A program made the translations under genes and the position numbers. DNA of 22,875 nt from a virus, in UHGV virus genome UHGV-0065784; one strand, given 5' to 3'. Of this stretch, positions 260-22,214 are shown piece after piece; the first letter of the stretch is position 1; each line of letters starts with the position of its first letter. The notes below the pieces were generated by a model that was not told the DNA's origin, did not search any database, and saw only the letters and a program-made list of their open reading frames with translations.

Positions 260-470
260 CGGGAAGTCAGCGTGAGGGTTTCTGGCTACACTTTCTGCAA
301 ACAAGAAAGGAGGGCTCTTGACGGCTCCCCGCCCTGAATGACGGGGATTCCCACTTCAACAAGCCGAACCTAAGCCGCGTGCTGCGATTCAGGGTTTACA
401 GGCTCTCCGTGGGCTAACACTGCCAGCCCGGCAGCTTTAATATTACGTGCCGCGTTAATGTCGCGATCAT
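260..470 (-). ncRNA. Predicted omega-RNA (right-end RNA) region of the TnpB element, overlapping tnpB 3' end and downstream right end; extent not determined
   Basis: Established TnpB biology places the guide-RNA scaffold at the 3' end of tnpB and the right end; region contains several short stem-loops (291-309, 327-346). No folding or covariance model was run. Confidence 0.3.
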
Positions 471-1500
471 GGTCTGCGCCGCATTCAGGGCAGTGCCATT
501 TACGAACATTAAGAGGCATTTTTTGCATGGTGAAACCGCAGCAACTACAGCATTTTGAGGACGGTAAATACTGGTCAATGGCGACCACTGACCGCCCGGC
601 CCATTTGCCTTTGTACTGGAGCTGGCGAACAAGTTCGCTCCAGCCTGCGTCAGCTATTGCTTTAGACAGCTTCGGGTTGCGGATCATGTTTTTCACCTTG
701 AGGGATTCGACGCAAACAACTTGGTTTTCGTTAATCAGTTTGCGGGACAACTTGTGCAGATTGTCCATCCGGCAATCGGCGATTTTCGCGTGGAGTCGGG
801 CGACCTTTAAGCGGGCTTTAATTCGGTTTCTTGAGCCTTTTTGCTTCCTGCTTAAACGTCGCTGTAGCAGCGTTAATCGCTTCGCATATTTAGCGGTGTG
901 GCGGGGATTGTCGGTTTTGAATCCGGTATCGGTGACGAATAAATCTTTTAAGCCCACATCAATGCCGACCGTTTTAGCGGTAACAGGCATTGATACAGGT
1001 TCAAACTCACACAGGCAGGAAACAAAGTACCTGCCAGCGCTATCTCTGGAAATGGTAACGGTTGACGGCGCAGATGGTAATTCTCGACTCCAGCGAACAT
1101 CCAGCGGCGACTTGCTCTTTGCTATATACAACTCGCCGTCACGGTGTTTAAACGCGCTGGCAGTGAACTCAGCCACCTGTTTGTGCCGTTTGCTTTTGAA
1201 AGCCGGATATGCAGCTCGTCCGGCAAAGAAGTTAGCAAAGGCGGCTTGTTGGTGGCGCAACGACTGCTGGAGGGGAACGCAGGAAACATCATTCAGCCAT
1301 ATGTATTCAGGCTCTTTTTTGAGCGCCGTAAGGCGAGCGTTGGCCTGTAGATAACCGATCTTTTCTTTTCGCTCGTAGTACGCATCGGTACGCCAACGAA
1401 GGATGGAATTGTAGACGAAGCGCACACAGCCAAACGTCTGAGCTAAAAGCTCAGCCTGCTCAGTTGTCGGGTAAAACCGGTATTTATATGCGCGTTTCAT
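370..1500 (-). CDS. tnpB: TnpB (IS605 OrfB-family RNA-guided nuclease, RuvC-like plus zinc finger)
   Basis: 376-aa ORF; N-terminal OrfB-type region, RuvC-I-like GIDVGLKD, RuvC-II-like VVCVESL, zinc finger CCSCCG...CPECG, RuvC-III-like HDRDINAARNI; catalytic D/E/D positions appear intact. Confidence 0.9.
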   Translation of the reverse strand: MKRAYKYRFYPTTEQAELLAQTFGCVRFVYNSILRWRTDAYYERKEKIGYLQANARLTALKKEPEYIWLNDVSCVPLQQSLRHQQAAFANFFAGRAAYPAFKSKRHKQVAEFTASAFKHRDGELYIAKSKSPLDVRWSRELPSAPSTVTISRDSAGRYFVSCLCEFEPVSMPVTAKTVGIDVGLKDLFVTDTGFKTDNPRHTAKYAKRLTLLQRRLSRKQKGSRNRIKARLKVARLHAKIADCRMDNLHKLSRKLINENQVVCVESLKVKNMIRNPKLSKAIADAGWSELVRQLQYKGKWAGRSVVAIDQYLPSSKCCSCCGFTMQKMPLNVRKWHCPECGADHDRDINAARNIKAAGLAVLAHGEPVNPESQHAA

Positions 1501-1608: not shown

Positions 1609-2085
1609 ATGAAACTCATCAGTAACGATCTGCGCGATGGCGATAAGCTGCCGCATCGTCATGTCTTTAACGGCATGGGTTACGATGGCGATAATATTTC
1701 ACCGCATCTGGCGTGGGATGATGTTCCTGCGGGAACGAAAAGTTTTGTTGTCACCTGCTATGACCCGGATGCGCCAACCGGCTCCGGCTGGTGGCACTGG
1801 GTAGTTGTTAATTTACCCGCTGATACCCGCGTATTACCGCAAGGGTTTGGCTCTGGTCTGGTAGCTATGCCAGACGGCGTTTTGCAGACGCGTACCGACT
1901 TTGGTAAAACCGGGTACGATGGCGCAGCGCCGCCGAAAGGCGAAACCCATCGCTACATTTTTACCGTTCACGCGCTGGATGTAGAACGTATTGATGTCGA
2001 TGAAGGTGCCAGCGGCGCGATGGTCGGGTTCAACGTTCATTTTCACTCTCTGGCGAGTGCCTCGATTACTGCGATGTTTAGTTAA
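1609..2085 (+). CDS. ybhB: PEBP-family (kinase-inhibitor-like) protein YbhB
   Basis: 158-aa ORF with GGAGG 7 nt upstream of ATG; sequence matches my recollection of E. coli YbhB (MKLISNDLRDGDKLPHRH...), PEBP-like motifs. Confidence 0.9.
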   Translation: MKLISNDLRDGDKLPHRHVFNGMGYDGDNISPHLAWDDVPAGTKSFVVTCYDPDAPTGSGWWHWVVVNLPADTRVLPQGFGSGLVAMPDGVLQTRTDFGKTGYDGAAPPKGETHRYIFTVHALDVERIDVDEGASGAMVGFNVHFHSLASASITAMFS

Positions 2086-2705: not shown

Positions 2706-5651
2706 TTAGTGCTTCCCTTCTATTAAGTCTAACCTAGCTTTTATTCTTTCTATTTCTCTGCGCTGCCATGCCGCCTCGATATAGAATAAGAGATCAGGTC
2801 TGACCCCCCATCTAGATCCTGCTGGCGTTATTTCAACGCGCTCAATGATGTCTTCCATTACCATCACTGGATTATCATCCTCATCAACAATGATGCTCCC
2901 GTCATTATCAGTCAGCGGCATTTCCCTTTGGCCAGTAATGACGTCATCATATACTGCGGGATAATCGTCATAGCAAAGAAAGGCATAGCGGCATGTTGTG
3001 CTTTCTTCTTCCATGAGTCCGTGAGAAATAAGAACATCACGAAGTTGCTGCGCGATTACACCATGATGTATCCTCGCCCCTTCTTCCCCCTTTATAGCGA
3101 CAGCGTTCAGCCATTTATAAGCGATATACCTGACGTCACCCCAGGCATCCAGCAATGCTTCGTCAGGAGAGACCGGCTCTGTCTTTAATGTTCCGTCACT
3201 GGTAATCACAGGATTGGAGCCAAGATAAACTGTCGAGAACCTGTTTCCCGGACCACCAAGAGCATTTACATTATCAAGATAAGGTTTAACATCTCCGTTC
3301 TCAAAAAGATGTTCGAGTGCGTTATATACCGCGCGACGTGGAGTACTGCTTCCGGAACCATGCAACGTTATCATTGCACCATCTGCTGAAGACGTTGTTT
3401 CACCTCCGCTAACGATTAATCTCTGAGCGGTAACATCATCAGACGGTACTTTCTTCGCAATAATGGCGTAATTACCCTCAAGTTTGACTTCCGCGCGAAC
3501 TTGTCCTGATGTACCTGCATGGACAGTCAGTGACTGGACGGCAACATCATCTGTGAAATCAACGGGTACAGGAACCGTCCTCACGCCTGACGTCGACATA
3601 AAAGTAGGAAGCGTTCTGTTAGGAGTGGCTCCGTAGACAAAATCCCTTGAAACAAATTCTTCCTGTTTAATTTTCACCCTGAAACAATACAAATCAGCCG
3701 GGTGACCATCGTGAACATAAGGATATTTTCTGTTGTTATCCCCTATGCTCCATGGGTTTAGAAAGTCTTCCCCACCGAAAATGTAGTACAGCCAGTTGTC
3801 TTTGATACAAACTGAACCAACACCAACCGCAGAGTTAACTATTCCGCCCTGATAAATCTGATCAGTAACATTAACCCACTCTACATTATCCAGACTCCAC
3901 TCATTGACGTTAACTCTGGTCATAAATGTTCTTGGATAATTTCCTGCATAACGGTTATCAGGTTCTCCTCCTTCCCACTCACCAAATGCGCGCTCACTGC
4001 CAAAAATAATCAGCTCATCGCCAACTTTGGCAAAAGGAAGGTTTGAGTGATGAACATTATTTGGGAAGCGAAGAGAATTCCATGATGTACCTAAATCAGA
4101 GCTTCTGTGCAATGAACTACCGGGTTGAGTACTTAATGTCCCCCTGGTCGTCAGATACAGAATGCCATCATAATATTTTACACATGGCTCAGATGCATTC
4201 GCCTCATATTCTACAGGTATGCGTCTGCGAACAAAGCTACCAGGAGAACCGAAAGCATCAGAGAAATAGAGTATCCCAAGCTCGCGTGGATCAATATCAC
4301 CATTATGGTAGCCAACAGCAAAACTGTTATCGCTAATCGTCGCAAAACTGTGAATCTCAGTAACAGGAGTGCTTCCGTCAACAAAAGAAGGAATAGTTCC
4401 AAGACTGGTTTTTCTCCATGGTGACGAGTGAAATGATGTACCAAAACTCCAGTATCTACCCTCGTTATTCTGATCCACATCCTGGGTATTTTGCGTCGTA
4501 ACTGTAAAAGTATTTTTATCAATAACAGTAGTCACCGTCATATTCCCGGTAACACCTGTAACACCAGAGTTTGAGAAGTTGACAAAATCACCAGCAAATA
4601 ATCCGTGATCAGTAATGCGAATATAAGCGACTTGCTGATTTGCTGCTTTCGTTATACCACCATAAACGCGAAGGCTGCGACTCATTGGGCGATCCCACAA
4701 CTCTGCAACCTGCAGTTTATTTCCGCTCACGGTCCGCGTCTCAATTACAGCAAAAAGGCGATTTCTGACAACCCCCATACTCATGCAGTGATAGTTAACT
4801 GTGGGATAGTTTTCATGTAAATCTGTAAGCCATTCCGGCGTTGTCCAGGTCTTCCCGTCATCTCCTGAGCGAACCCATGCAACATGGAGGTTATTTACAC
4901 CATGGCGGTCTCCAGCCATAAAAGGCGCATAGATGACATTGTCATATACAAACGTTTTATCCTGCGTCCAGGCGTTGTACCACGGTGTATCTGTAATTTT
5001 AAATAACTCTCCCTGGATAAAATCTTCAGAAGCATAAAAAAGAGGCTGACCCGGTATTCTCTCAAATAAAAAACGAGCATTTTTAAATCGACTGACATCT
5101 GGAAGAGTTGATACTTTAAAAGTAAGCCCTCGCCCATCTATCTTTTCACCACCTGTTGCAACAGAAAGTAATTCTGATAGAGCTGATGTGTCATCATGAA
5201 CACCATCACCAATAGCCCCCCAACCTCTTACATCATAACTGTCTCTCCATCTTGCTATCTGAAGTTTTGGGTATTTATTCGCTCCATCTGGGTCTTCTAA
5301 TTGCTGCCGTAACTGATCAGGATCATACTTCAGCACATTAGGAAAATAGAACTGCTGCGCACCATACGCATCATAAACAGCCATAGAATGGCCTTGCACG
5401 GTAACGAATTTGGCAATCTGTCCGTTATATACCGGATATCCAGCAGCGTTAATGATTATTGGTTGCGAAACAGGAATGTGAGAACCGTCTTCGTTCTCTA
5501 CATAAACCTGAATCTGGTTTTCAGGATTTACCGGGTCAGTGTCAATTTTACCGATATAAATTTTGCCATTGGCTACGGCTTTAAAAGAACGCGCCATAGT
5601 GAAGAGTTGCGAAGGCATACTCACTACAACATTGGCTGTAATGTCTGTCAT
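2706..5651 (-). CDS. Tailspike: P22-like N-terminal particle-binding domain, sialidase-like (Asp-box) receptor-degrading domain, C-terminal intramolecular chaperone (S74-type) domain; probable endosialidase
   Basis: 981-aa ORF; N-terminus [43 protein letters not shown]... closely resembles the P22 gp9 head-binding domain; Asp-box motifs SGDDGKTW and SSDLGTSW; C-terminal ~150 aa resemble self-cleaving chaperone domains of endosialidase-type tailspikes; GGAG RBS 8 nt before ATG. Confidence 0.85.
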
Positions 5652-5719
5652 TTAATTTGCTCCAGATACAAGGAATCGCCGCAGCATTGCCACAGTGATG
5701 CATTATTAATCAAACAAAG

Positions 5720-5734
5720 AGACCACTGTGGTCT
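5720..5734. promoter_or_regulatory. 15-bp palindrome AGACCACTGTGGTCT, candidate Mnt-type operator in the mnt/tailspike divergent region
   Basis: Perfect inverted repeat around a single central base, sitting between the divergent starts of mnt (5798) and tailspike (5651); similar in style to the P22 mnt operator as I remember it (GGTCCACGGTGGACC). Confidence 0.55.
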
Positions 5735-5797
5735 TATTGAGGATGCAACCAGCAGATAATAAGATGCCGATCCACTCACAAAAGCGAGGCATCAAGA

Positions 5798-6049
5798 ATG
5801 GGAAGAGATGACCCGCAATTTAATCTGCGGCTACCTTACGAATTAAAGGAAAAACTAAAACAGCGAGCCAAATCCAATGGCCGCTCTCTTAATTCAGAAT
5901 TAGTTCAGATAGTGACTGATGCTGTATCAAAGCCATCCAAAATTTCAGGCTATCGAGACGATGCGGAACGCATCGCTGATGAGCAGTCAGAGCTTGTTAA
6001 GAAGATGGTGTTTGATACGCTGAAGGATTTGTACAAAAAACCCACCTGA
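5798..6049 (+). CDS. mnt: Mnt-like ribbon-helix-helix repressor
   Basis: 83-aa ORF MGRDDPQFNLRLPYELKEKLKQRAKSNGRSLNSELVQIV...DEQSELVKKMVFDTLKDLYKKPT, highly similar to P22 Mnt from memory; GAGG RBS; divergent from the late genes as in P22. Confidence 0.9.
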   Translation: MGRDDPQFNLRLPYELKEKLKQRAKSNGRSLNSELVQIVTDAVSKPSKISGYRDDAERIADEQSELVKKMVFDTLKDLYKKPT

Positions 6050-6066
6050 AGGTGGGTTAATTTTTG
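6041..6066 (+). terminator. Rho-independent terminator overlapping the mnt stop codon
   Basis: cccacc-tgaa-ggtggg stem flanked by an A-run upstream and ttaatttttg downstream. Confidence 0.5.
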
Positions 6067-6148
6067 CATTTACCTGGGCCATATTGACTACTTATAAAAT
6101 GAGATCAATATTTAATCGCCCAATAACGGGTGTATGTTGAGGTATATC

Positions 6149-6328
6149 ATGGCGAAAAAACCAGGTGAAAACACAGGAAAAAACGGCGGAATATACCAAG
6201 AAGTTGGCCCACGCGGCGGTAAGAAAGACAATTTTGCAACCGTCAAGGACAACGAAAGGCTTCCACCAACAACAAAGCCAGGTCATGGCTGGGTATTGGA
6301 TAAGCGAACTCCAGACAGCAAAAAGTAA
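6149..6328 (+). CDS. Small conserved phage protein (59 aa), YjzC-like by motif
   Basis: ATG at 6149 with GAGG 7 nt upstream and a TTGACT -35-like hexamer at 6085-6090; peptide MAKKPGENTGKNGGIYQEVGPRGGKKDNFATVKDNERLPPTTKPGHGWVL... resembles a small-protein family I recall as YjzC-like; the ORF-track start at 6134 is probably a 5-codon over-extension. Confidence 0.6.
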   Translation: MAKKPGENTGKNGGIYQEVGPRGGKKDNFATVKDNERLPPTTKPGHGWVLDKRTPDSKK

Positions 6329-6335
6329 TAATCAA

Positions 6336-6356
6336 GCCGGGTCACTCCGGCTTTTT
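6336..6356. terminator. Putative bidirectional terminator between convergent genes
   Basis: gccgg-gtcact-ccggc stem followed by TTTTT on plus strand and AT-rich on the other side; overlaps the last codons of the minus-strand gene. Confidence 0.45.
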
Positions 6357-6707
6357 GATATGTCGCTCGCAGAACTCAACAAGCCTGCTCATTAAGTAGC
6401 AGTAAGTCTCGTTGGCTCTTCCTGGTTCAACATCAACACCTACCCTTGAGCAGATATCGAATGCCATGTGAGCGCACTCATGGGCAATAGTAGATAGTTT
6501 GCCATTGAACACGCCTATCACATGCAAAACACCATTCTCGCTACTCATTGTATGAGACGCTCCGTTGGCGTCCGAGTCATGCACGTCAACGCCAAGTTTT
6601 TGATGCAGGCGTTGCCATTCTGGAAAGTCTCTACAAAACACAATTGTACCGCTCTCAAAGAGCGGAACGAGCATCTTTGGTACGTTTCCAATGTTAACTT
6701 TTTTCAT
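6342..6707 (-). CDS. Small HExxH protein, possible ImmA/IrrE-like (M78-type) mini metallopeptidase
   Basis: 121-aa ORF with AGGA 4 nt before ATG; motif HECAH followed about 20 residues later by [13 protein letters not shown], reminiscent of the HExxH...E-x-N-x-FA...LL signature of ImmA/IrrE peptidases; family assignment is from motif memory only. Confidence 0.6.
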
Positions 6708-6737
6708 GGTATCCTGCGCAAAACTAAGGAGGTTGGT

Positions 6738-7232
6738 GTGTCTGATTCTATGAGTTACGCTGTGCTAGTTGCCGCAACTCTATTTCTGGGGATAGGGTTG
6801 CAGATTGCGTGGTTCTTTTTTTCTAGTTTTATTAAACGTAAAAGAATTGAATCAAGGATATCTGAGATTTCTATTGCTATAGGGAAAAATGCTGAAAATC
6901 CAGAGAATGAGGCCTGCGCACTGAATTACCTTAAAGAAAAGTTTTCCCCTGAAAAATTTGAAAACAGAATTACTGATGCTCTTGGATTGGTAATATCAGT
7001 AATTCATATGCCACTAAGTTTGCTGATAACAGTGTGGTACTTCGCCATGATCGCCGGAAGAATATTTGGTTTCATGAATATAGAGCCTGTAGTTCTTTGG
7101 GTTCCAATGATACTGCAATTGTTGTTAAGCGTTGCTATCTTTATTTTTTCTGTTTTTATAAAAATTGTCTTCGGAAGATACCCCGGAGAAGCGAAGGGAT
7201 TTAATAAAGAATTCATAAAAACTATAAAATAA
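6738..7232 (+). CDS. Inner-membrane protein with three predicted TM helices at the sieA position of P22-like phages (candidate superinfection-exclusion protein)
   Basis: GTG start at 6738 preceded by AAGGAGG (6726-6732, 5-nt spacer); hydrophobic segments [75 protein letters not shown]; AT-rich; opposite orientation to late genes, between gp16 and mnt as sieA is in P22. No sequence match to SieA could be checked. Confidence 0.65.
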
Positions 7233-7254: not shown

Positions 7255-9096
7255 CTACTGCCGGGTAGCTTCGTTAACTAAGAGCGGGCGCACGGCAGTA
7301 GCCGCCTGATTTAGCGCTCTTTCATAAGCTGGCGTTCCAGCTTTAGTGTTTGCCAGACGTAAGAGCGCATTCCTTGCTGCTTTGGATTCATACAAGCGCA
7401 TCATTGCACCGAAACCAGCCTCAAGCCCCATTGATACGCCAAGAGTCGTAGTTGCGCCAATCGTCCTTATCCTGTTGGCTTGCGATTGCCCCGTCTGAGT
7501 TACTACATTTGCGGTGTCTGATCTTGCTGCTTGCTGTAGAACTTCATGAAGAGCATCAAGTTCTTTCATGTGCTTTCCAGAAAAAATAGTGTTGTAAATT
7601 TCACCGCCTGACTGAGATTTCAGCTTATTAACTTCAGTGATGAACTTGGCTGGAGAGTCACCGGCCTTTTCCGCTATTTTGCTGACGTAAGCTGCACGCA
7701 TAGCATCTTTCCCTTTATCATCAAGTGCGCTCCAGATTCGTTTCACGTCAGATGGTTTTCTGCTTAATACAACGGTATTTATAAGTTCAGGACTGGCTTC
7801 ACTGCTTGCCTTGTTGAGCTTGTTAGCAATGTTTTTATTAAGCACCTTATTATAAACGTTTGCATAATCGGAATTTGCTTTAAGGTATTTTGCTGCGTCT
7901 GAAGCACCGAGGTTTTTGGCAACTGCGTTACGAAGGTCTTTTGACATTGCATTCTCTACCATATTGGTAGCTGCTTTTGCCTGGTTGGGGAAGACCATGG
8001 CATCTCCCTGAACATTAGATCTAAATGCTGTTCTGTGCTGGCGCAAGAGATCAAACGTAACATCCAAATCAGTTGCAGGGTTTGCTAATTCTTCACGTAG
8101 GTTACGCAAGGATGTAAGCAGGTTTTGATTGGCAGAAGTCCCAAGCCGTTCCTGTCTTGCGATCGCTGTATTCAGAGCATTCATGGTATTTGTGGTATCA
8201 ACTGCGGCATTACCCATTTTATTGGTGACGTCATTGATAACAGCGCCAGCGGCATCCTTCCGTCCCCTTAACGTGGTGGTCAGAGATCTCACCACATCAT
8301 CAGGGTTGTACTCACCAAAACGGTCAAAATAATTGCTTACCAGCTTACTACGCGTTGCATATTGCTCCGCTCGCTTTGAGCCTGTCCCGAGCAAAGCCCC
8401 CTCAGCATCTTGAGTAAGTCCGCGAGTGAAAGCATTTTTCGGCGGGATAACATCAGATGTCATTGGTGTCACGCCCATCGATTCTGATGTGGCAATTTTC
8501 TTTGCCACTTCTGGCGCAATATCACCTTTTATAGCCGTTATTCCACGCCCTATTCCCTTTGCTGCTGCGGAAAGAACACCCTGAGCGGCAAGGTTAACTC
8601 CGGCATTTTTAGCTGCATTTTGTGCGAAATCACCTTTCTGATTTGCGGCCTCTGCCAGTGATCCAATAGCCATGCTTCCTGCCGTTCCAACTCCTGGAAC
8701 TAAATACCCGCCAATTGTTTCTCCAGCTTGAGCGTAGGGGTCTGTCGGTCTGTCTACTGGACGATAAACATCATCCAAAACCTTGGGGCCACCAAGCCCC
8801 GGACTGATTGCATTAATCAGACTTGCGCCGCCCTGTAATACGTCAAATGGTATGTTTACCAGACCACGACCAGCCTGTTCTGCAATTTGCCCTGCACTTT
8901 GACCACCAGTGAGCCAATCGCCAGCTTGTTGCATCAATGATGGTTCTTCCCGTGTTGGTGCATTATTGGCCTGATTAACTGTTTGTTGCTGAACAGCCTG
9001 ACCAGCAAAATACTCATCAATGGCGGTGCCAATATCTTCCGTGCTCGTACCATCAGGGAAGGTAAATGTCTTACCGTTTGCAGTTACTTTCATCAT
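7255..9096 (-). CDS. Ejection (injection) protein, P22 gp16-like
   Basis: 613-aa ORF; N-terminus [30 protein letters not shown] resembles P22 gp16 from memory; last gene of the ejection-protein trio; 4-nt overlap with upstream gene. Confidence 0.8.
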
Positions 9097-16730: not shown

Positions 16731-18857
16731 TTAACTCGGCATTAAGTCTGCCGGAGACTGTGGTGGTGACTGGAATTGCTGTTGTTGTGACTCGGCGACA
16801 TCTTTCAGAAGGCGTATTACCTCCATCACTGCTTTGTCATCGATGTTTCTGGCTTGGGCCAGTTTATAGACAGTGTTTGCCTGACTCTCCATCGCATCCT
16901 GCTGGGCAGTAAATGCTTTGATTTGAGTTTGAGCAGTTTCGTTAGTTGCTTTTTGCGCTTCTGCCTGCGCTGCTACCATTTGCGCCTGAGCGAGAACCAT
17001 TTCAGGATTTGGCTGGCTTTGTGCTGCCATTTGCGCCTGTTGAACAATCTGCTGATCTTTCTCATTGCGTGGTTTTGCAATACCAGATATCAGCAGTTGG
17101 TTTCGGTTGTACTCTTTGAAGTCATCAAGGCCTTCGCCATCGATATTGTCCAGAATAATACCCTGAATTGCCGGGCGCATTGGGTCTGTTGGAAGCATAG
17201 AGCTAAGGACATTTGTCAGTACAGAAACCGTTGCATCACGTCGTGCTGTGTAGCTTGGTCCAACATCAACCGTCACATCGTATCGACCGACAGAAAGGTC
17301 ATTTAACGCAACAACAGCCCCTGTTTGCCTGTCAACAACCTGTGCGCTCAGGACAGCGATATCATCACTTCCATCTTCGTTAACGATGCGCACTTCACGT
17401 TCTGAACCGTACACTTCACGCGCCATTGACAGCCATACTTCACCAGCGCGTTTAAGACTTTTCGCCATATTGTCCAGATAGATAAACGAAGCCATATCTG
17501 CTCTGTTCATCAAGTTGTTAACCGTTTCCTGAGCAATATTACTTGGCATCTGCTGCATGGCCTGACTGCCGCCTGTAACCTCCTGAATATCAGCACTGGT
17601 TTGCTGTAGTAATGCAGCCAATGCCTGATTCATAACCGCAGGCTGTGTATATCCTGCCGGGGTAGCTCCAGCGATGATGTTGCCAGATTTATCTCTCACT
17701 TCGCGCAACGGCAAGAACGCTGGTCGTTTCTTGTTGCGAGCCTCCCAGTGCTTCTCAAGTCCACGTATTTGCTCCATGCCAACTATAGGGATCTGACCGG
17801 GGTCTTGCGCTGCAGTATCAGCCAGCATTGATACCTGAAGGTTGTACAAACGCTGTGGATCCATTGCTTTTGCAATATGTCCTTCGACACGCTCAATGTC
17901 ATCAATGAACCAGCGTTTTCCATAAACCGGGATGAGGGGGATATGCTCACCAGGAATACGTCGAGGTTTCTCAAGGAAACCATCACCATCCACTACTGAT
18001 ACATACACACGACGCCGCTTCACTGAGCGCCTTGCAACTTCCTGAAATCCAGCTATTGCCAGTTCATCTTCAATATCTTCGACCTGATCACTGTCGTATG
18101 TTGCAATCTCTCCAGTGATTGAATGTCGATAACTGATAACGTCAACAGACTCTTTACGAACTTCGTAATACTTCGCTATGTAAATAACATCTGCATCAAA
18201 CCAGTCATATTCCCAACTGGTCATAGACGTTACATCCAGAGAAGCAGGAGGTTTCTTTCCGTATTCAGCCTCATATTTTTCAGGTGACAACGAATACATG
18301 CAGAACGCCCACAACGCGTCAGATTTGTCGTACTTCTTAGCGTCAGGGTCAAACCACACAGAGCGCGACGGGTCGTATATTGGTTCAATAGCAATACGCT
18401 GACGATCGTCCATGGGGTCGTATTCATTGACCAGCATCGACGTCAAACGGAAGCAACCGAAACCACCAGTAGCAGCGTCGTCAAATGCATTATCGCAAGC
18501 CTCACCGCCATCAGTTTCTTCGTAGTCAGCACGGAACAGACCATTTAATTTATTGGCTAACTCTTCGCTTGCCTCTCTGTCACCAGGACGAAACTTAACG
18601 GTGATTCTGTTATTGCGGTATTCTGCAATGATGCGGTTAAGTTCAGTTGCTACCTTATTGATTTCAAACTTAGGATACTTCTCGAACTGCTCATCAAGCT
18701 TAGTTCCAGCCGCCGTTGCTCCTTCCCATTGACCTCCGGGGACACGAGCAAACCTCGTAGCTTCAATGCACTTTTCGCGCACTTCCTGCTGTGGAGAATA
18801 GGCGCGGTCAAACCTGAGCATGATCCGCTCATGTTTTTTCTCTAATGTCTCTGCCAT
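16731..18857 (-). CDS. Portal protein, P22 gp1-like
   Basis: Segments such as GEHIPLIPVYGKRWFIDDIERVEGHIAKAMDPQRLYN resemble P22 portal; start placed at the internal ATG (MAETLEKK...) 2 nt after the TerL stop rather than the ORF-track start at 18929. Confidence 0.9.
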   Translation of the reverse strand: MAETLEKKHERIMLRFDRAYSPQQEVREKCIEATRFARVPGGQWEGATAAGTKLDEQFEKYPKFEINKVATELNRIIAEYRNNRITVKFRPGDREASEELANKLNGLFRADYEETDGGEACDNAFDDAATGGFGCFRLTSMLVNEYDPMDDRQRIAIEPIYDPSRSVWFDPDAKKYDKSDALWAFCMYSLSPEKYEAEYGKKPPASLDVTSMTSWEYDWFDADVIYIAKYYEVRKESVDVISYRHSITGEIATYDSDQVEDIEDELAIAGFQEVARRSVKRRRVYVSVVDGDGFLEKPRRIPGEHIPLIPVYGKRWFIDDIERVEGHIAKAMDPQRLYNLQVSMLADTAAQDPGQIPIVGMEQIRGLEKHWEARNKKRPAFLPLREVRDKSGNIIAGATPAGYTQPAVMNQALAALLQQTSADIQEVTGGSQAMQQMPSNIAQETVNNLMNRADMASFIYLDNMAKSLKRAGEVWLSMAREVYGSEREVRIVNEDGSDDIAVLSAQVVDRQTGAVVALNDLSVGRYDVTVDVGPSYTARRDATVSVLTNVLSSMLPTDPMRPAIQGIILDNIDGEGLDDFKEYNRNQLLISGIAKPRNEKDQQIVQQAQMAAQSQPNPEMVLAQAQMVAAQAEAQKATNETAQTQIKAFTAQQDAMESQANTVYKLAQARNIDDKAVMEVIRLLKDVAESQQQQFQSPPQSPADLMPS

Positions 18858-21734: not shown

Positions 21735-22214
21735 TTAAATGATTTGCCAGTCTTCAGCCATCAGGTCGCCAATGGATGGAACCCATGTAGCAAGGCGGCT
21801 CTGTGAGTTTTTCAATACAAGCGTGTCATTGAAAGTTGGCTCGCCAACATATTCGCCAAAGCCATAACCCAACGCAGACGCTAATTTTTCCCCTTTCACG
21901 AGATAAACAAACTGGTCTTTCCCATTCCATCCTGCCCGCTGCAAACTTTTGCCCTGTTTTAACGCTTCCATGGCAAGGCCGAAACTTAGTCCTGATACCG
22001 GACGATAAGCCTTTTCGAATACTTCTTTTGGACTCCAACTAACGTAGCCATCAAAGCGATCGGTGTTAGGTTTTCCGCCATCCAGATATTCAACCAGATA
22101 GCCTTCGTCCTCGCCGTTTTCTCCGGCAGGAAGCTGCCAGCCACGAAAATCGTTATATGCCTGTCTCGTCATCGGAAAGGCGTTAATCAGTTTTACGCCA
22201 ATATGCTGGGTCAT
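21735..22214 (-). CDS. Two-part protein whose C-terminal half resembles DUF2829 (Tad2-type anti-Thoeris sponge family)
   Basis: 159-aa ORF; C-terminal motifs FGLAMEALKQGKSLQRAGWNGKDQFVYLV and ...WVPSIGDLMAEDWQII resemble what I remember of DUF2829; located between the lysis cassette and terminase, a typical moron site. Confidence 0.6.
   Translation of the reverse strand: MTQHIGVKLINAFPMTRQAYNDFRGWQLPAGENGEDEGYLVEYLDGGKPNTDRFDGYVSWSPKEVFEKAYRPVSGLSFGLAMEALKQGKSLQRAGWNGKDQFVYLVKGEKLASALGYGFGEYVGEPTFNDTLVLKNSQSRLATWVPSIGDLMAEDWQII

Follow-up and report, generated by a model that had tools for sequence, protein, structure and literature searches.

The stretch of DNA analysed here (the window, all 22,875 nucleotides of UHGV virus genome UHGV-0065784) carries a gene for the repressor Mnt, divergent from a tailspike gene, together with a palindrome that matches the known position of an Mnt operator. 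We consider it probable that protein and palindrome form a working repressor-operator pair of a natural specificity class unlike that of phage P22, that arc and ant have been deleted from beside it, and that the pair serves autoregulation together with a role in trans.

An orphan mnt gene next to the tailspike gene of a P22-like prophage

The window corresponds to the minus-strand late region of a P22-like (Lederbergvirus) prophage of Escherichia coli. Its ejection-protein genes are those for gp7 and gp20 homologs and, at 7255-9096, for a gp16 homolog assigned from its position and from comparison with P22 and ST160. The tailspike gene that ends the late operon is 99.6% identical to CUS-3 siaK1, with Pfam matches to Head_binding (E = 1.2e-66) and End_beta_propel (E = 7.9e-233); a neuO-type heptanucleotide repeat was sought near it and none was found. 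A PEBP-family gene and an IS605-family tnpB are found past the tailspike gene and so mark the prophage end. Between the gene 16 homolog and the tailspike gene are mnt, orf59a (6134-6328), hkcC (6342-6707) and a SieA-like gene, an arrangement like that of ST160, SE1 and Gally. This set of small non-structural genes with mnt, flanked by the homologs of genes 16 and 9 and devoid of arc and ant, is that of an 'ant moron' of the orphan-mnt type.

An earlier note on this DNA had placed the tailspike gene directly divergent from mnt, with 146 bp between the start codons and a perfect palindrome at 5720-5734. Both are as described: the gap is 5652-5797, and the palindrome AGACCACTGTGGTCT (AGACCAC-T-GTGGTCT) lies exactly there. 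Conservation in the gap was assessed by alignment and column scoring of 46 different sequences upstream of orphan mnt genes, from E. coli, Salmonella, Klebsiella and Serratia. Loci were gathered from IMG/VR with the protein (80), as divergent homologs in Salmonella, Serratia and Klebsiella, and by pattern search (120), which by construction returns exact operators only. The features of the region are as follows.

2706-5651, minus strand: tailspike gene, P22-type head-binding domain and endosialidase, CUS-3-like; last gene of the late operon
5652-5683, minus strand: tailspike leader and ribosome-binding site CTGGAGCAAATTAAATG; mean consensus frequency 0.89 in the 46 orphan loci
5684-5702: 'weaker site' GCATTGCCACAGTGATGCA, a remnant of the post-ant-terminator sequence of P22-type genomes
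5703-5718: hypervariable spacer, consensus frequency 0.70, with an 11-14 bp indel; the junction where arc-ant is missing
5719-5735: putative Mnt operator of the Gln6 class, GAGACCAC-T-GTGGTCTT; core 5721-5733, dyad centre 5727
5737-5742, plus strand: P_mnt -35 TTGAGG, assigned by positional homology (P22 TTGAGA); TTG invariant in the 46 sequences
5760-5765, plus strand: P_mnt -10 TAAGAT after a 17-bp spacer (P22 TATCAT); TAAGAT or TATGAT conserved
5798-6049, plus strand: mnt, 83 aa; N-terminal ribbon-helix-helix (RHH), then the Mnt C-terminal tetramerisation domain
5951-6400: P22-like stretch, 97% identical to P22 DNA (megablast; query position 652 is window position 5951)
6039-6058: bidirectional intrinsic terminator at the mnt end, 8-bp stem with T-runs on both strands

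The mnt-tailspike junction recurs at 97-99% identity in phages vB_EcoP-720R6 and Gally and at 98-99.9% in the best-matching complete E. coli genomes. A scan of species-representative genome contigs with the Mnt protein gave no match, and the pattern GACCACNGTGGTCTTATTG returned just eight chance matches in those genomes, all in unrelated MAGs; the species-representative genomes are thus evidently without this prophage.

The protein is an Mnt with glutamine at position 6

The N-terminal domain of the 83-residue protein matches Pfam Arc (PF03869, E = 2.8e-22) and its C-terminal domain Repressor_Mnt (PF11423, E = 2.2e-18). PDB entry 1mnt aligns over residues 3-77 (E = 2.8e-34), 29 of 31 residues are identical to the tetramerisation peptide 1qey, and overall identity to P22 Mnt is 76%, bearing out the earlier assignment as a clear Mnt homolog. 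Public records already list this very protein as Mnt, and the gene carries the same annotation in SE1, ST160, Gally and vB_EcoP-720R6. By its C-domain and its position it is clearly Mnt and not Arc. P22 Arc has the RHH fold in common with it, but has 53 residues, no tetramerisation domain and another N-terminal arm. The sole likeness of the window protein to Arc is the strand PQFNLR (PQFNLRW in Arc, PQFNLRL here). No Arc-operator sequence accompanies the window protein, and the 21-bp P22 Arc operator, ATAGTAGAGTGCTTCTATCAT, which lies between the hexamers of P_ant, is unrelated to the window operator save for a possible common AGA. As a lead only, we note that Arc has the very strand of the Gln6 class, PQFNLR, and that the Gln6 half-site gains AGA, like the TAGA boxes of Arc.

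The base-contacting residues of Mnt are said to be Arg2, His6, Asn8 and Arg10 (Knight and Sauer). Alignment with P22 Mnt and with the PDB entries shows Arg2, Asn8 and Arg10 kept and position 6 occupied by Gln, where P22 has His, the residues being those given in the earlier note. Two further differences from P22 lie in the same strand region (Phe9 to Leu and Met11 to Leu).

Comparison with the orphan copy of ST160 gave a dN/dS of 0.095 at a dS of 0.51, and mnt is under purifying selection. The orphan module has also been kept in Serratia, where identity of Mnt is down to 63% and the flanking DNA is unrelated.

A palindrome homologous to O_mnt, with conserved arms

The P22 operator, read from AF217253, is AGGTCCACCGTGGACCT, and the half-site GTCCAC given for it in the earlier note is correct. 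Set against this operator, the window palindrome is the O_mnt homolog, with identical position and spacing: it ends 1 nt before ATTGAGG, as P22 O_mnt ends 1 nt before ATTGAGA. It forms an odd-centred 17-bp dyad beside the -35 of P_mnt, the geometry found at 3274-3290 of the P22 locus (L001), and the ST160 counterpart reads AAGACCACGGTGGTCTT-ATTGTGG...TATGAT. Arms of 7+1+7 arose in 0.74% of shuffles of the gap, and the whole window has just two palindromes of this kind. No second copy of the core GACCACNGTGGTC was found in the window with up to two mismatches, and the operator scan of the complete Gally genome, at the same tolerance, returned a single site and no other.

In the 46 orphan upstream sequences, the GACCAC half-site agrees with the consensus at 99.3% and the GTGGTC half-site at 98.6%, and TTATTG is invariant. 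The centre base shows maximal variation (T in 8, G in 13, C in 14 and A in 11; 1.97 bits), the two outer bases on the left side of the operator are variable, and the 16-bp spacer toward the tailspike gene, with its 11-14 bp indel, is the least conserved stretch; positions 5710-5720 are missing from 14 of the 46. A random centre between invariant arms points to a selected dyad site whose centre is uncontacted; shared ancestry alone would not give it. Operator point mutations or mnt stop codons occur in a few relatives (L035, L043, L064 and L069), which indicates that the module can decay.

A predicted P_mnt is retained and P_ant, arc and ant are lost

The hexamers of P_mnt predict a start near 5772, which would centre the operator at about -45, in agreement with P22. 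The promoter matches the consensus at 8 of 12 positions, under the threshold of the promoter scanner, and P_mnt is presumably functional on the strength of its homology. At the positions homologous to P_ant, the window has TCGGCA for the -35 (TTGACA in P22) and TGCATC for the -10 (TATATT in P22); the latter is without the key A2 and T6, and the ST160 type reads TGTATC. The P22 Arc operator is replaced by unrelated sequence, and a promoter scan of 5400-6800 found no sigma-70-like promoter toward the tailspike gene. Judged by these hexamers, P_ant is destroyed in the window.

The absence of arc and ant reported earlier was borne out by phmmer: four Arc and six Ant/Bro/Rha queries, drawn from P22, CUS-3 and other loci, matched nothing but Mnt itself among all open reading frames of the window. 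No arc lies divergent from mnt as in immI, the gap running straight into the tailspike gene, and no ant under a P_ant overlapped by O_mnt was found within the window. The P22 arc-ant intercistronic region, source of the sar antisense RNA, is absent as well.

The tailspike leader sequence also stands upstream of gene 9 in P22, HK620 and CUS-3. Next to it, a weaker site related to the operator had been proposed around 5688-5702. Its letters are there (CCACAGTGA lies literally at 5690-5698), but as an operator-like site it is not conserved. The mean consensus frequency of 5684-5702 in the 46 sequences is 0.73, the CCAC/GTG letters vary, and CCACAGTG becomes CCGCAGTG, CTACGGCA, CTGCAGTG and others in relatives. 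More than two mismatches separate the site from the operator core, and it is homologous to GGCTACGGTGAATTTT, found behind the ant terminator and ahead of gene 9 in the ant-carrying phages P22 (twice), HK620 and CUS-3. We therefore rejected a second operator here; on this homology, 5684-5702 is to be read as one edge of the arc-ant deletion. At the other end of mnt, the minus-strand face of the terminator at 6039-6058 meets late-operon transcription bound for the tailspike gene, and the homologous site in HK620 is annotated tMNT.

Operator and Mnt residues vary together

Four classes of Mnt N-terminus were found, each with its own operator.

MARDDPHFNFRMP (His6, Asn8; the P22 class): AGGTCCAC-N-GTGGACCT (GGTCCAC); arc-ant always present
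MGR(D/E)DPQFNLRLP (Gln6, Asn8): xxGACCAC-N-GTGGTCTT; adjoins the tailspike gene
MARDEPKFTFRMP (Lys6, Thr8): AAGGTCAC-C-GTGACCTT (AGGTCAC); with arc-ant, in Salmonella and Serratia
MMYSKYDEAQFHLRLT (no Arg2 arm): TACC-N5-GGTA with the same centre; orphan

The pairing was also examined from the operator side, by scanning IMG/VR for each palindrome and then seeking an adjacent RHH gene. Sites of the AGACCAC type adjoined 99 Gln6/Asn8 proteins and one Gln6/Lys8 protein, GGTCCAC sites 79 His6 proteins and AGGTCAC sites four Lys6/Thr8 proteins. No cross-pairing of residue class and operator was found across about 180 loci, two apparent Gln matches at P22-type sites being the neighbouring arc gene. 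The co-variation suspected earlier, His6 to Gln together with GTCCAC to GACCAC, is thus without exception in these loci, and the third and fourth classes extend it. As the change at residue 6 is paired with an operator change in every relative, the window protein appears to be a specificity variant and not a case of lost function. The co-variation comes from few independent lineages, each of the three main classes being probably monophyletic for the N-domain.

All three main classes keep the innermost CAC and the G at -6, while operator positions -4, -5 and -7 vary with Mnt residues 6 and 8. Arg2 of Mnt reads the operator centre, and the class without Arg2 has lost the inner CAC, which fits that role. 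We take residue 6 to be the one behind a known change of Mnt preference at operator positions 16 and 17. According to a secondary source, a change of one Mnt residue moves the preference at two adjacent operator positions (PMC1184061).

The Gln6 class arose before arc and ant were lost

The change of specificity and the orphan state of the gene proved to be unlinked. Three contigs (L099, L152 and L163) have a MARDDPQFNLRMT... Mnt, the operator GAGACCACCGTGGTCTT and a good P_ant (TTGACA-17-CATCAT), followed by arc and ant; two others (L092 and L093) have a half-degenerate version of the operator. Since a Gln6 Mnt occurs with the same operator in complete mnt-arc-ant cassettes, the class existed before those two genes were lost. 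Over 75% of the length of L163, identity to the Salmonella siphophages S107 and SPN3UB is 82%. Erwinia phage Midgardsormr38 and SPN3UB, the annotated phages closest to the L152/L163 cassette, were set aside as they have different RHH proteins and operators. A search of E. coli genomes for a Gln6-class ant cassette matched just the ant C-terminus, at 89%.

The C-terminal domains attached to the Gln6 N-domain are of at least five kinds. In the window, a mosaic junction lies near mnt codon 51, at the domain boundary: relative to P22, the C-domain (residues 53-83) is 90% identical with a dS of 0.17, whereas the N-domain is just 67% identical, with synonymous sites saturated (pS 0.86). A junction at the domain boundary, together with the variety of C-domains, marks promoter, operator and RHH domain as the unit of inheritance.

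Function of the orphan pair

By homology, the Mnt tetramer would place one RHH dimer on each GACCAC half-site of the operator centred at 5727, which abuts the -35 of mnt's own promoter at the P22 distance. Comparison shows the N-terminal arm and beta-strand (Arg2, Gln6, Asn8 and Arg10), the operator and P_mnt to be one specificity module, which co-varies and passes on as a unit. In P22, Mnt at O_mnt reportedly represses P_ant and raises P_mnt only indirectly (Vershon et al., 1987). Since P_ant is gone and the phage genome offers no further site, what Mnt does locally would shrink to autoregulation of P_mnt, positive or negative; the single operator in Gally likewise makes any role in cis a local one, and leftward transcription to the tailspike gene would suffer at most incidental hindrance. 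Most likely, Mnt would act in trans in the lysogen by silencing the ant promoter of incoming or co-resident phages with the same operator class, which would shield the prophage from anti-repression. The loss of P_ant leaves the site free to decay unless binding matters, and this favours autoregulation with a role in trans. Phages with both a Gln6-class operator and ant exist among enterobacterial siphophages (the L099, L152 and L163 contigs); as none was found in E. coli genomes, the case for the trans role comes from enterobacterial relatives only.

A wider reading seems to us possible, though we hold it tentatively. Natural Mnts may form an allelic series of at least four to five operator specificities, set by residues 6 and 8 and the N-terminal arm, with promoter, operator and RHH domain swapped together as one cassette that ends at the domain boundary. 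In that case the orphan Gln6 module, which four genera retain under strong selection although it has no antirepressor to control, might have an undescribed stand-alone function, either heterotypic 'anti-antirepressor' immunity to other phage families or control of tailspike or late transcripts.

Expression data from the relative Gally bear on the readings that involve the tailspike gene. RNA-seq showed Gally mnt to be transcribed in the lysogen, its RNA being at background in stationary LB and 40-fold up in macrophages, and deletion of mnt left the survival of LF82 in macrophages, the only phenotype assayed, unchanged (PMC9928086). Tailspike RNA rises alongside mnt RNA while gene 16 stays at background (PMC9928086). 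That the two RNAs rise together speaks against Mnt as a simple repressor of the tailspike gene, and leaky termination after the strongly expressed, co-directional GALLYPH_14 explains the tailspike RNA better than gating by Mnt does.

Mnt on its operator, the terminator at 6039-6058 and the convergent P_mnt could instead act as a roadblock or insulator that, in the lysogen, restricts how much leftward transcription reads on into the tailspike gene, and may tune late transcription in the lytic cycle. Late transcription does cross mnt antisense and the operator before it reaches the tailspike gene, the operator is conserved despite the loss of P_ant, and the ant moron has been suggested to affect P_late read-through into gene 9 (PMC2629481). 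However, blocking of elongating polymerase by Mnt is a supposition, antiterminated late transcription is normally resistant to such blocks, and Gally tailspike RNA rises when mnt RNA is 40-fold up. We regard this as unlikely.

Still less probable is the proposal of the earlier note that Mnt, bound to the palindrome, represses a P_ant relic that now drives the tailspike gene and so gates its expression. It draws on the overlap of O_mnt with the P_ant start in P22, where gene 9 is downstream of ant, on the suggestion in the ε34 genome paper that the ant moron may influence tailspike levels (PMC2629481), and on the presence of tailspike RNA in the Gally lysogen with gene 16 at background. Yet the homologous -35 is TCGGCA and the -10, TGCATC, is without A2 and T6, there is no promoter-like site toward the tailspike gene in 5400-6800, and no part of the gap is less conserved than the operator flank on the tailspike side. 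On the hexamer comparison and the promoter scan, the relic was rejected as the tailspike driver, and the parallel Gally RNAs fit read-through from GALLYPH_14 better.

It is very improbable that the pair is a non-functional remnant of a degrading immI, its palindrome surviving through recent common ancestry alone: the phage L genome paper raises this for its own mnt-like gene, mnt and ant of HK620 are in advanced decay, and the mutated relatives (L064, L069, L035 and L043) and the silent Gally deletion, with its sole phenotype, would fit, but the low dN/dS between well-diverged orphan copies, invariant half-sites around a saturated centre base beside a spacer full of changes, retention in Serratia and the transcribed and regulated mnt of Gally all speak against it.

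Relation to known systems

Nearest to the window pair among known systems is P22 Mnt/O_mnt of the mnt-arc-ant immI region. The two have in common the two-domain protein with Arg2, Asn8 and Arg10, the 17-bp odd-centred dyad 1 nt before the P_mnt -35 and the location between genes 16 and 9; they differ in half-site (GGTCCAC in P22, (A)GACCAC here), in residue 6 and in the lack, in the window, of arc, ant, sar, the Arc operator and intact P_ant hexamers. The orphan-mnt 'ant morons' of ST64T, ST104, L, SE1, ST160 and Gally share with the window an mnt directly divergent from the tailspike gene, the Gln6 N-domain and the operator core (AAGACCACGGTGGTCTT in ST160), and Gally and vB_EcoP-720R6 are 97-99% identical to it. 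Such morons differ in the tailspike (an endosialidase here), in the genes downstream of mnt (orf59a, hkcC, sieA-like, P22-type) and in the spacer, which is 11-14 bp longer in the window type. The CUS-3 prophage of E. coli K1 (CP000711) has the same tailspike gene (99.6%) and the same P22-like type of late region, but carries ant and then an operon of two RHH genes, the second of which encodes a His6 Mnt that lacks O_mnt, in contrast to the orphan Gln6 module of the window. CUS-3 was accordingly rejected as the window's origin, since its ant moron is of another type despite the matching tailspike gene.

An orphan mnt between genes 16 and 9 has been described in ST64T, ST104 and Para1 (PMC2629481), and the arrangement also appears in bioRxiv 10.1101/2020.10.05.325894 and in PMC9928086; the authors of the phage L genome asked whether its mnt-like gene is a remnant or has a new function. 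The literature searched, which has few subscription journals, gave no description of the orphan operator or of natural Mnt specificity classes. The arrangement is known, then, and what is new is the matched specificity variant and the evidence of selection on it.

The window Mnt belongs to a well-studied family, is unremarkable within it and sits in an arrangement already known, and it offers a clean natural example of co-variation; the advance is incremental and largely expected. Mnt and Arc are textbook models of DNA recognition by beta-sheets, and in the laboratory Mnt has been re-targeted by changes of single residues. The natural matched pairs (Gln6, His6, Lys6/Thr8 and others) could directly test and extend the Mnt recognition code. 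The strong conservation of an orphan repressor together with its single operator argues that the 'remnant' mnt genes, which are common among P22-like prophages, are functional, and the role of these orphan genes is now directly testable.

Mosaic structure of mnt

The mnt gene, which encodes the Mnt repressor homolog, is a mosaic whose junction coincides with the boundary between its two protein domains. From position 5951, inside mnt at about codon 51, rightward to 6400, the window DNA is 97% identical to P22, a stretch that takes in the mnt C-terminal domain, orf59a and hkcC. The part encoding the N-terminal domain, together with the promoter and operator, belongs to a lineage that is saturated at synonymous sites relative to P22.

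The mnt 5' region is flanked by a perfect 6-bp inverted repeat, GATGCC...GGCATC (window 5763-5768 and 5788-5793), the right arm of which overlaps the Shine-Dalgarno GAGG of mnt. The left arm overlaps the mnt -10 hexamer and may therefore fall outside the transcript. Nearly all orphan loci (mnt beside the tailspike gene without arc or ant), those of Serratia included, keep this repeat, but neither P22 nor the complete mnt-arc-ant cassettes with a Gln6 Mnt have it.

Decay of the module in relatives

In some relatives the module has undergone decay. Residue 53 of Mnt is a stop codon in two IMG/VR loci, L064 and L069, and in L064 the right operator half-site is also mutated, to GTGATC. Five further relatives (L035, L043, L026, L055 and L013) carry a single half-site change but an intact mnt gene.

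Other features of the window

Further genes of the window are:

370-1500, minus strand, IS605-family TnpB (OrfB_IS605 and Cas12f1-like TNB domain)
1609-2085, plus strand, PEBP-family gene
6522-7232, plus strand, SieA-like ORF of 236 aa (PHROG match)
21735-22214, minus strand, ORF whose product has a Pfam hit (E 1.5e-21) to a Tad2-like domain (Thoeris anti-defence 2)

The TnpB and PEBP-family genes lie just past the tailspike end of the prophage; no neuO-type heptanucleotide repeat was found in this region, in contrast to CUS-3, which has one. The SieA-like ORF overlaps hkcC (6342-6707, minus strand) on the opposite strand. Since its PHROG match is limited to residues 73-236, sieA itself probably begins near 6738. 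Besides the operator, the only 7+1+7 palindrome of the window (TTACGAACTTCGTAA, 18154-18168) lies within a coding region and is probably due to chance.

Other layouts and specificity classes

CUS-3 proper (L219, CP000711, 6505-7534; also L070-L073) has the control of ant laid out differently: ant is followed by a two-gene ribbon-helix-helix (RHH) operon, preceded by direct repeats GGTACGCAT, in which gene 1 encodes another RHH protein (MSDRKYKNPQVNLRLP) and gene 2 a His6 (P22-type) Mnt that lacks an upstream Mnt operator. In L154 (IMG/VR 2597490351), whose context is not P22-like, a perfect 17-bp palindrome (TAGACCACCGTGGTCTA, 4391-4405) lies upstream of the gene for a distant RHH protein (MSREDPQMKIRLPAEL) with residues Gln6, Lys8 and Arg10; this gene is divergent from another small one. 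Finally, upstream of 2501 in the E. coli locus L094 (Logan SRR800461), an orphan Mnt has a P22-like C-domain, but its N-terminal arm and strand differ (MMYSKYDEAQFHLRLT); its partner site, TACC-N5-GGTA, keeps the dyad centre of the other classes and adjoins ATTGTTG. Protein and site together represent one more specificity class.
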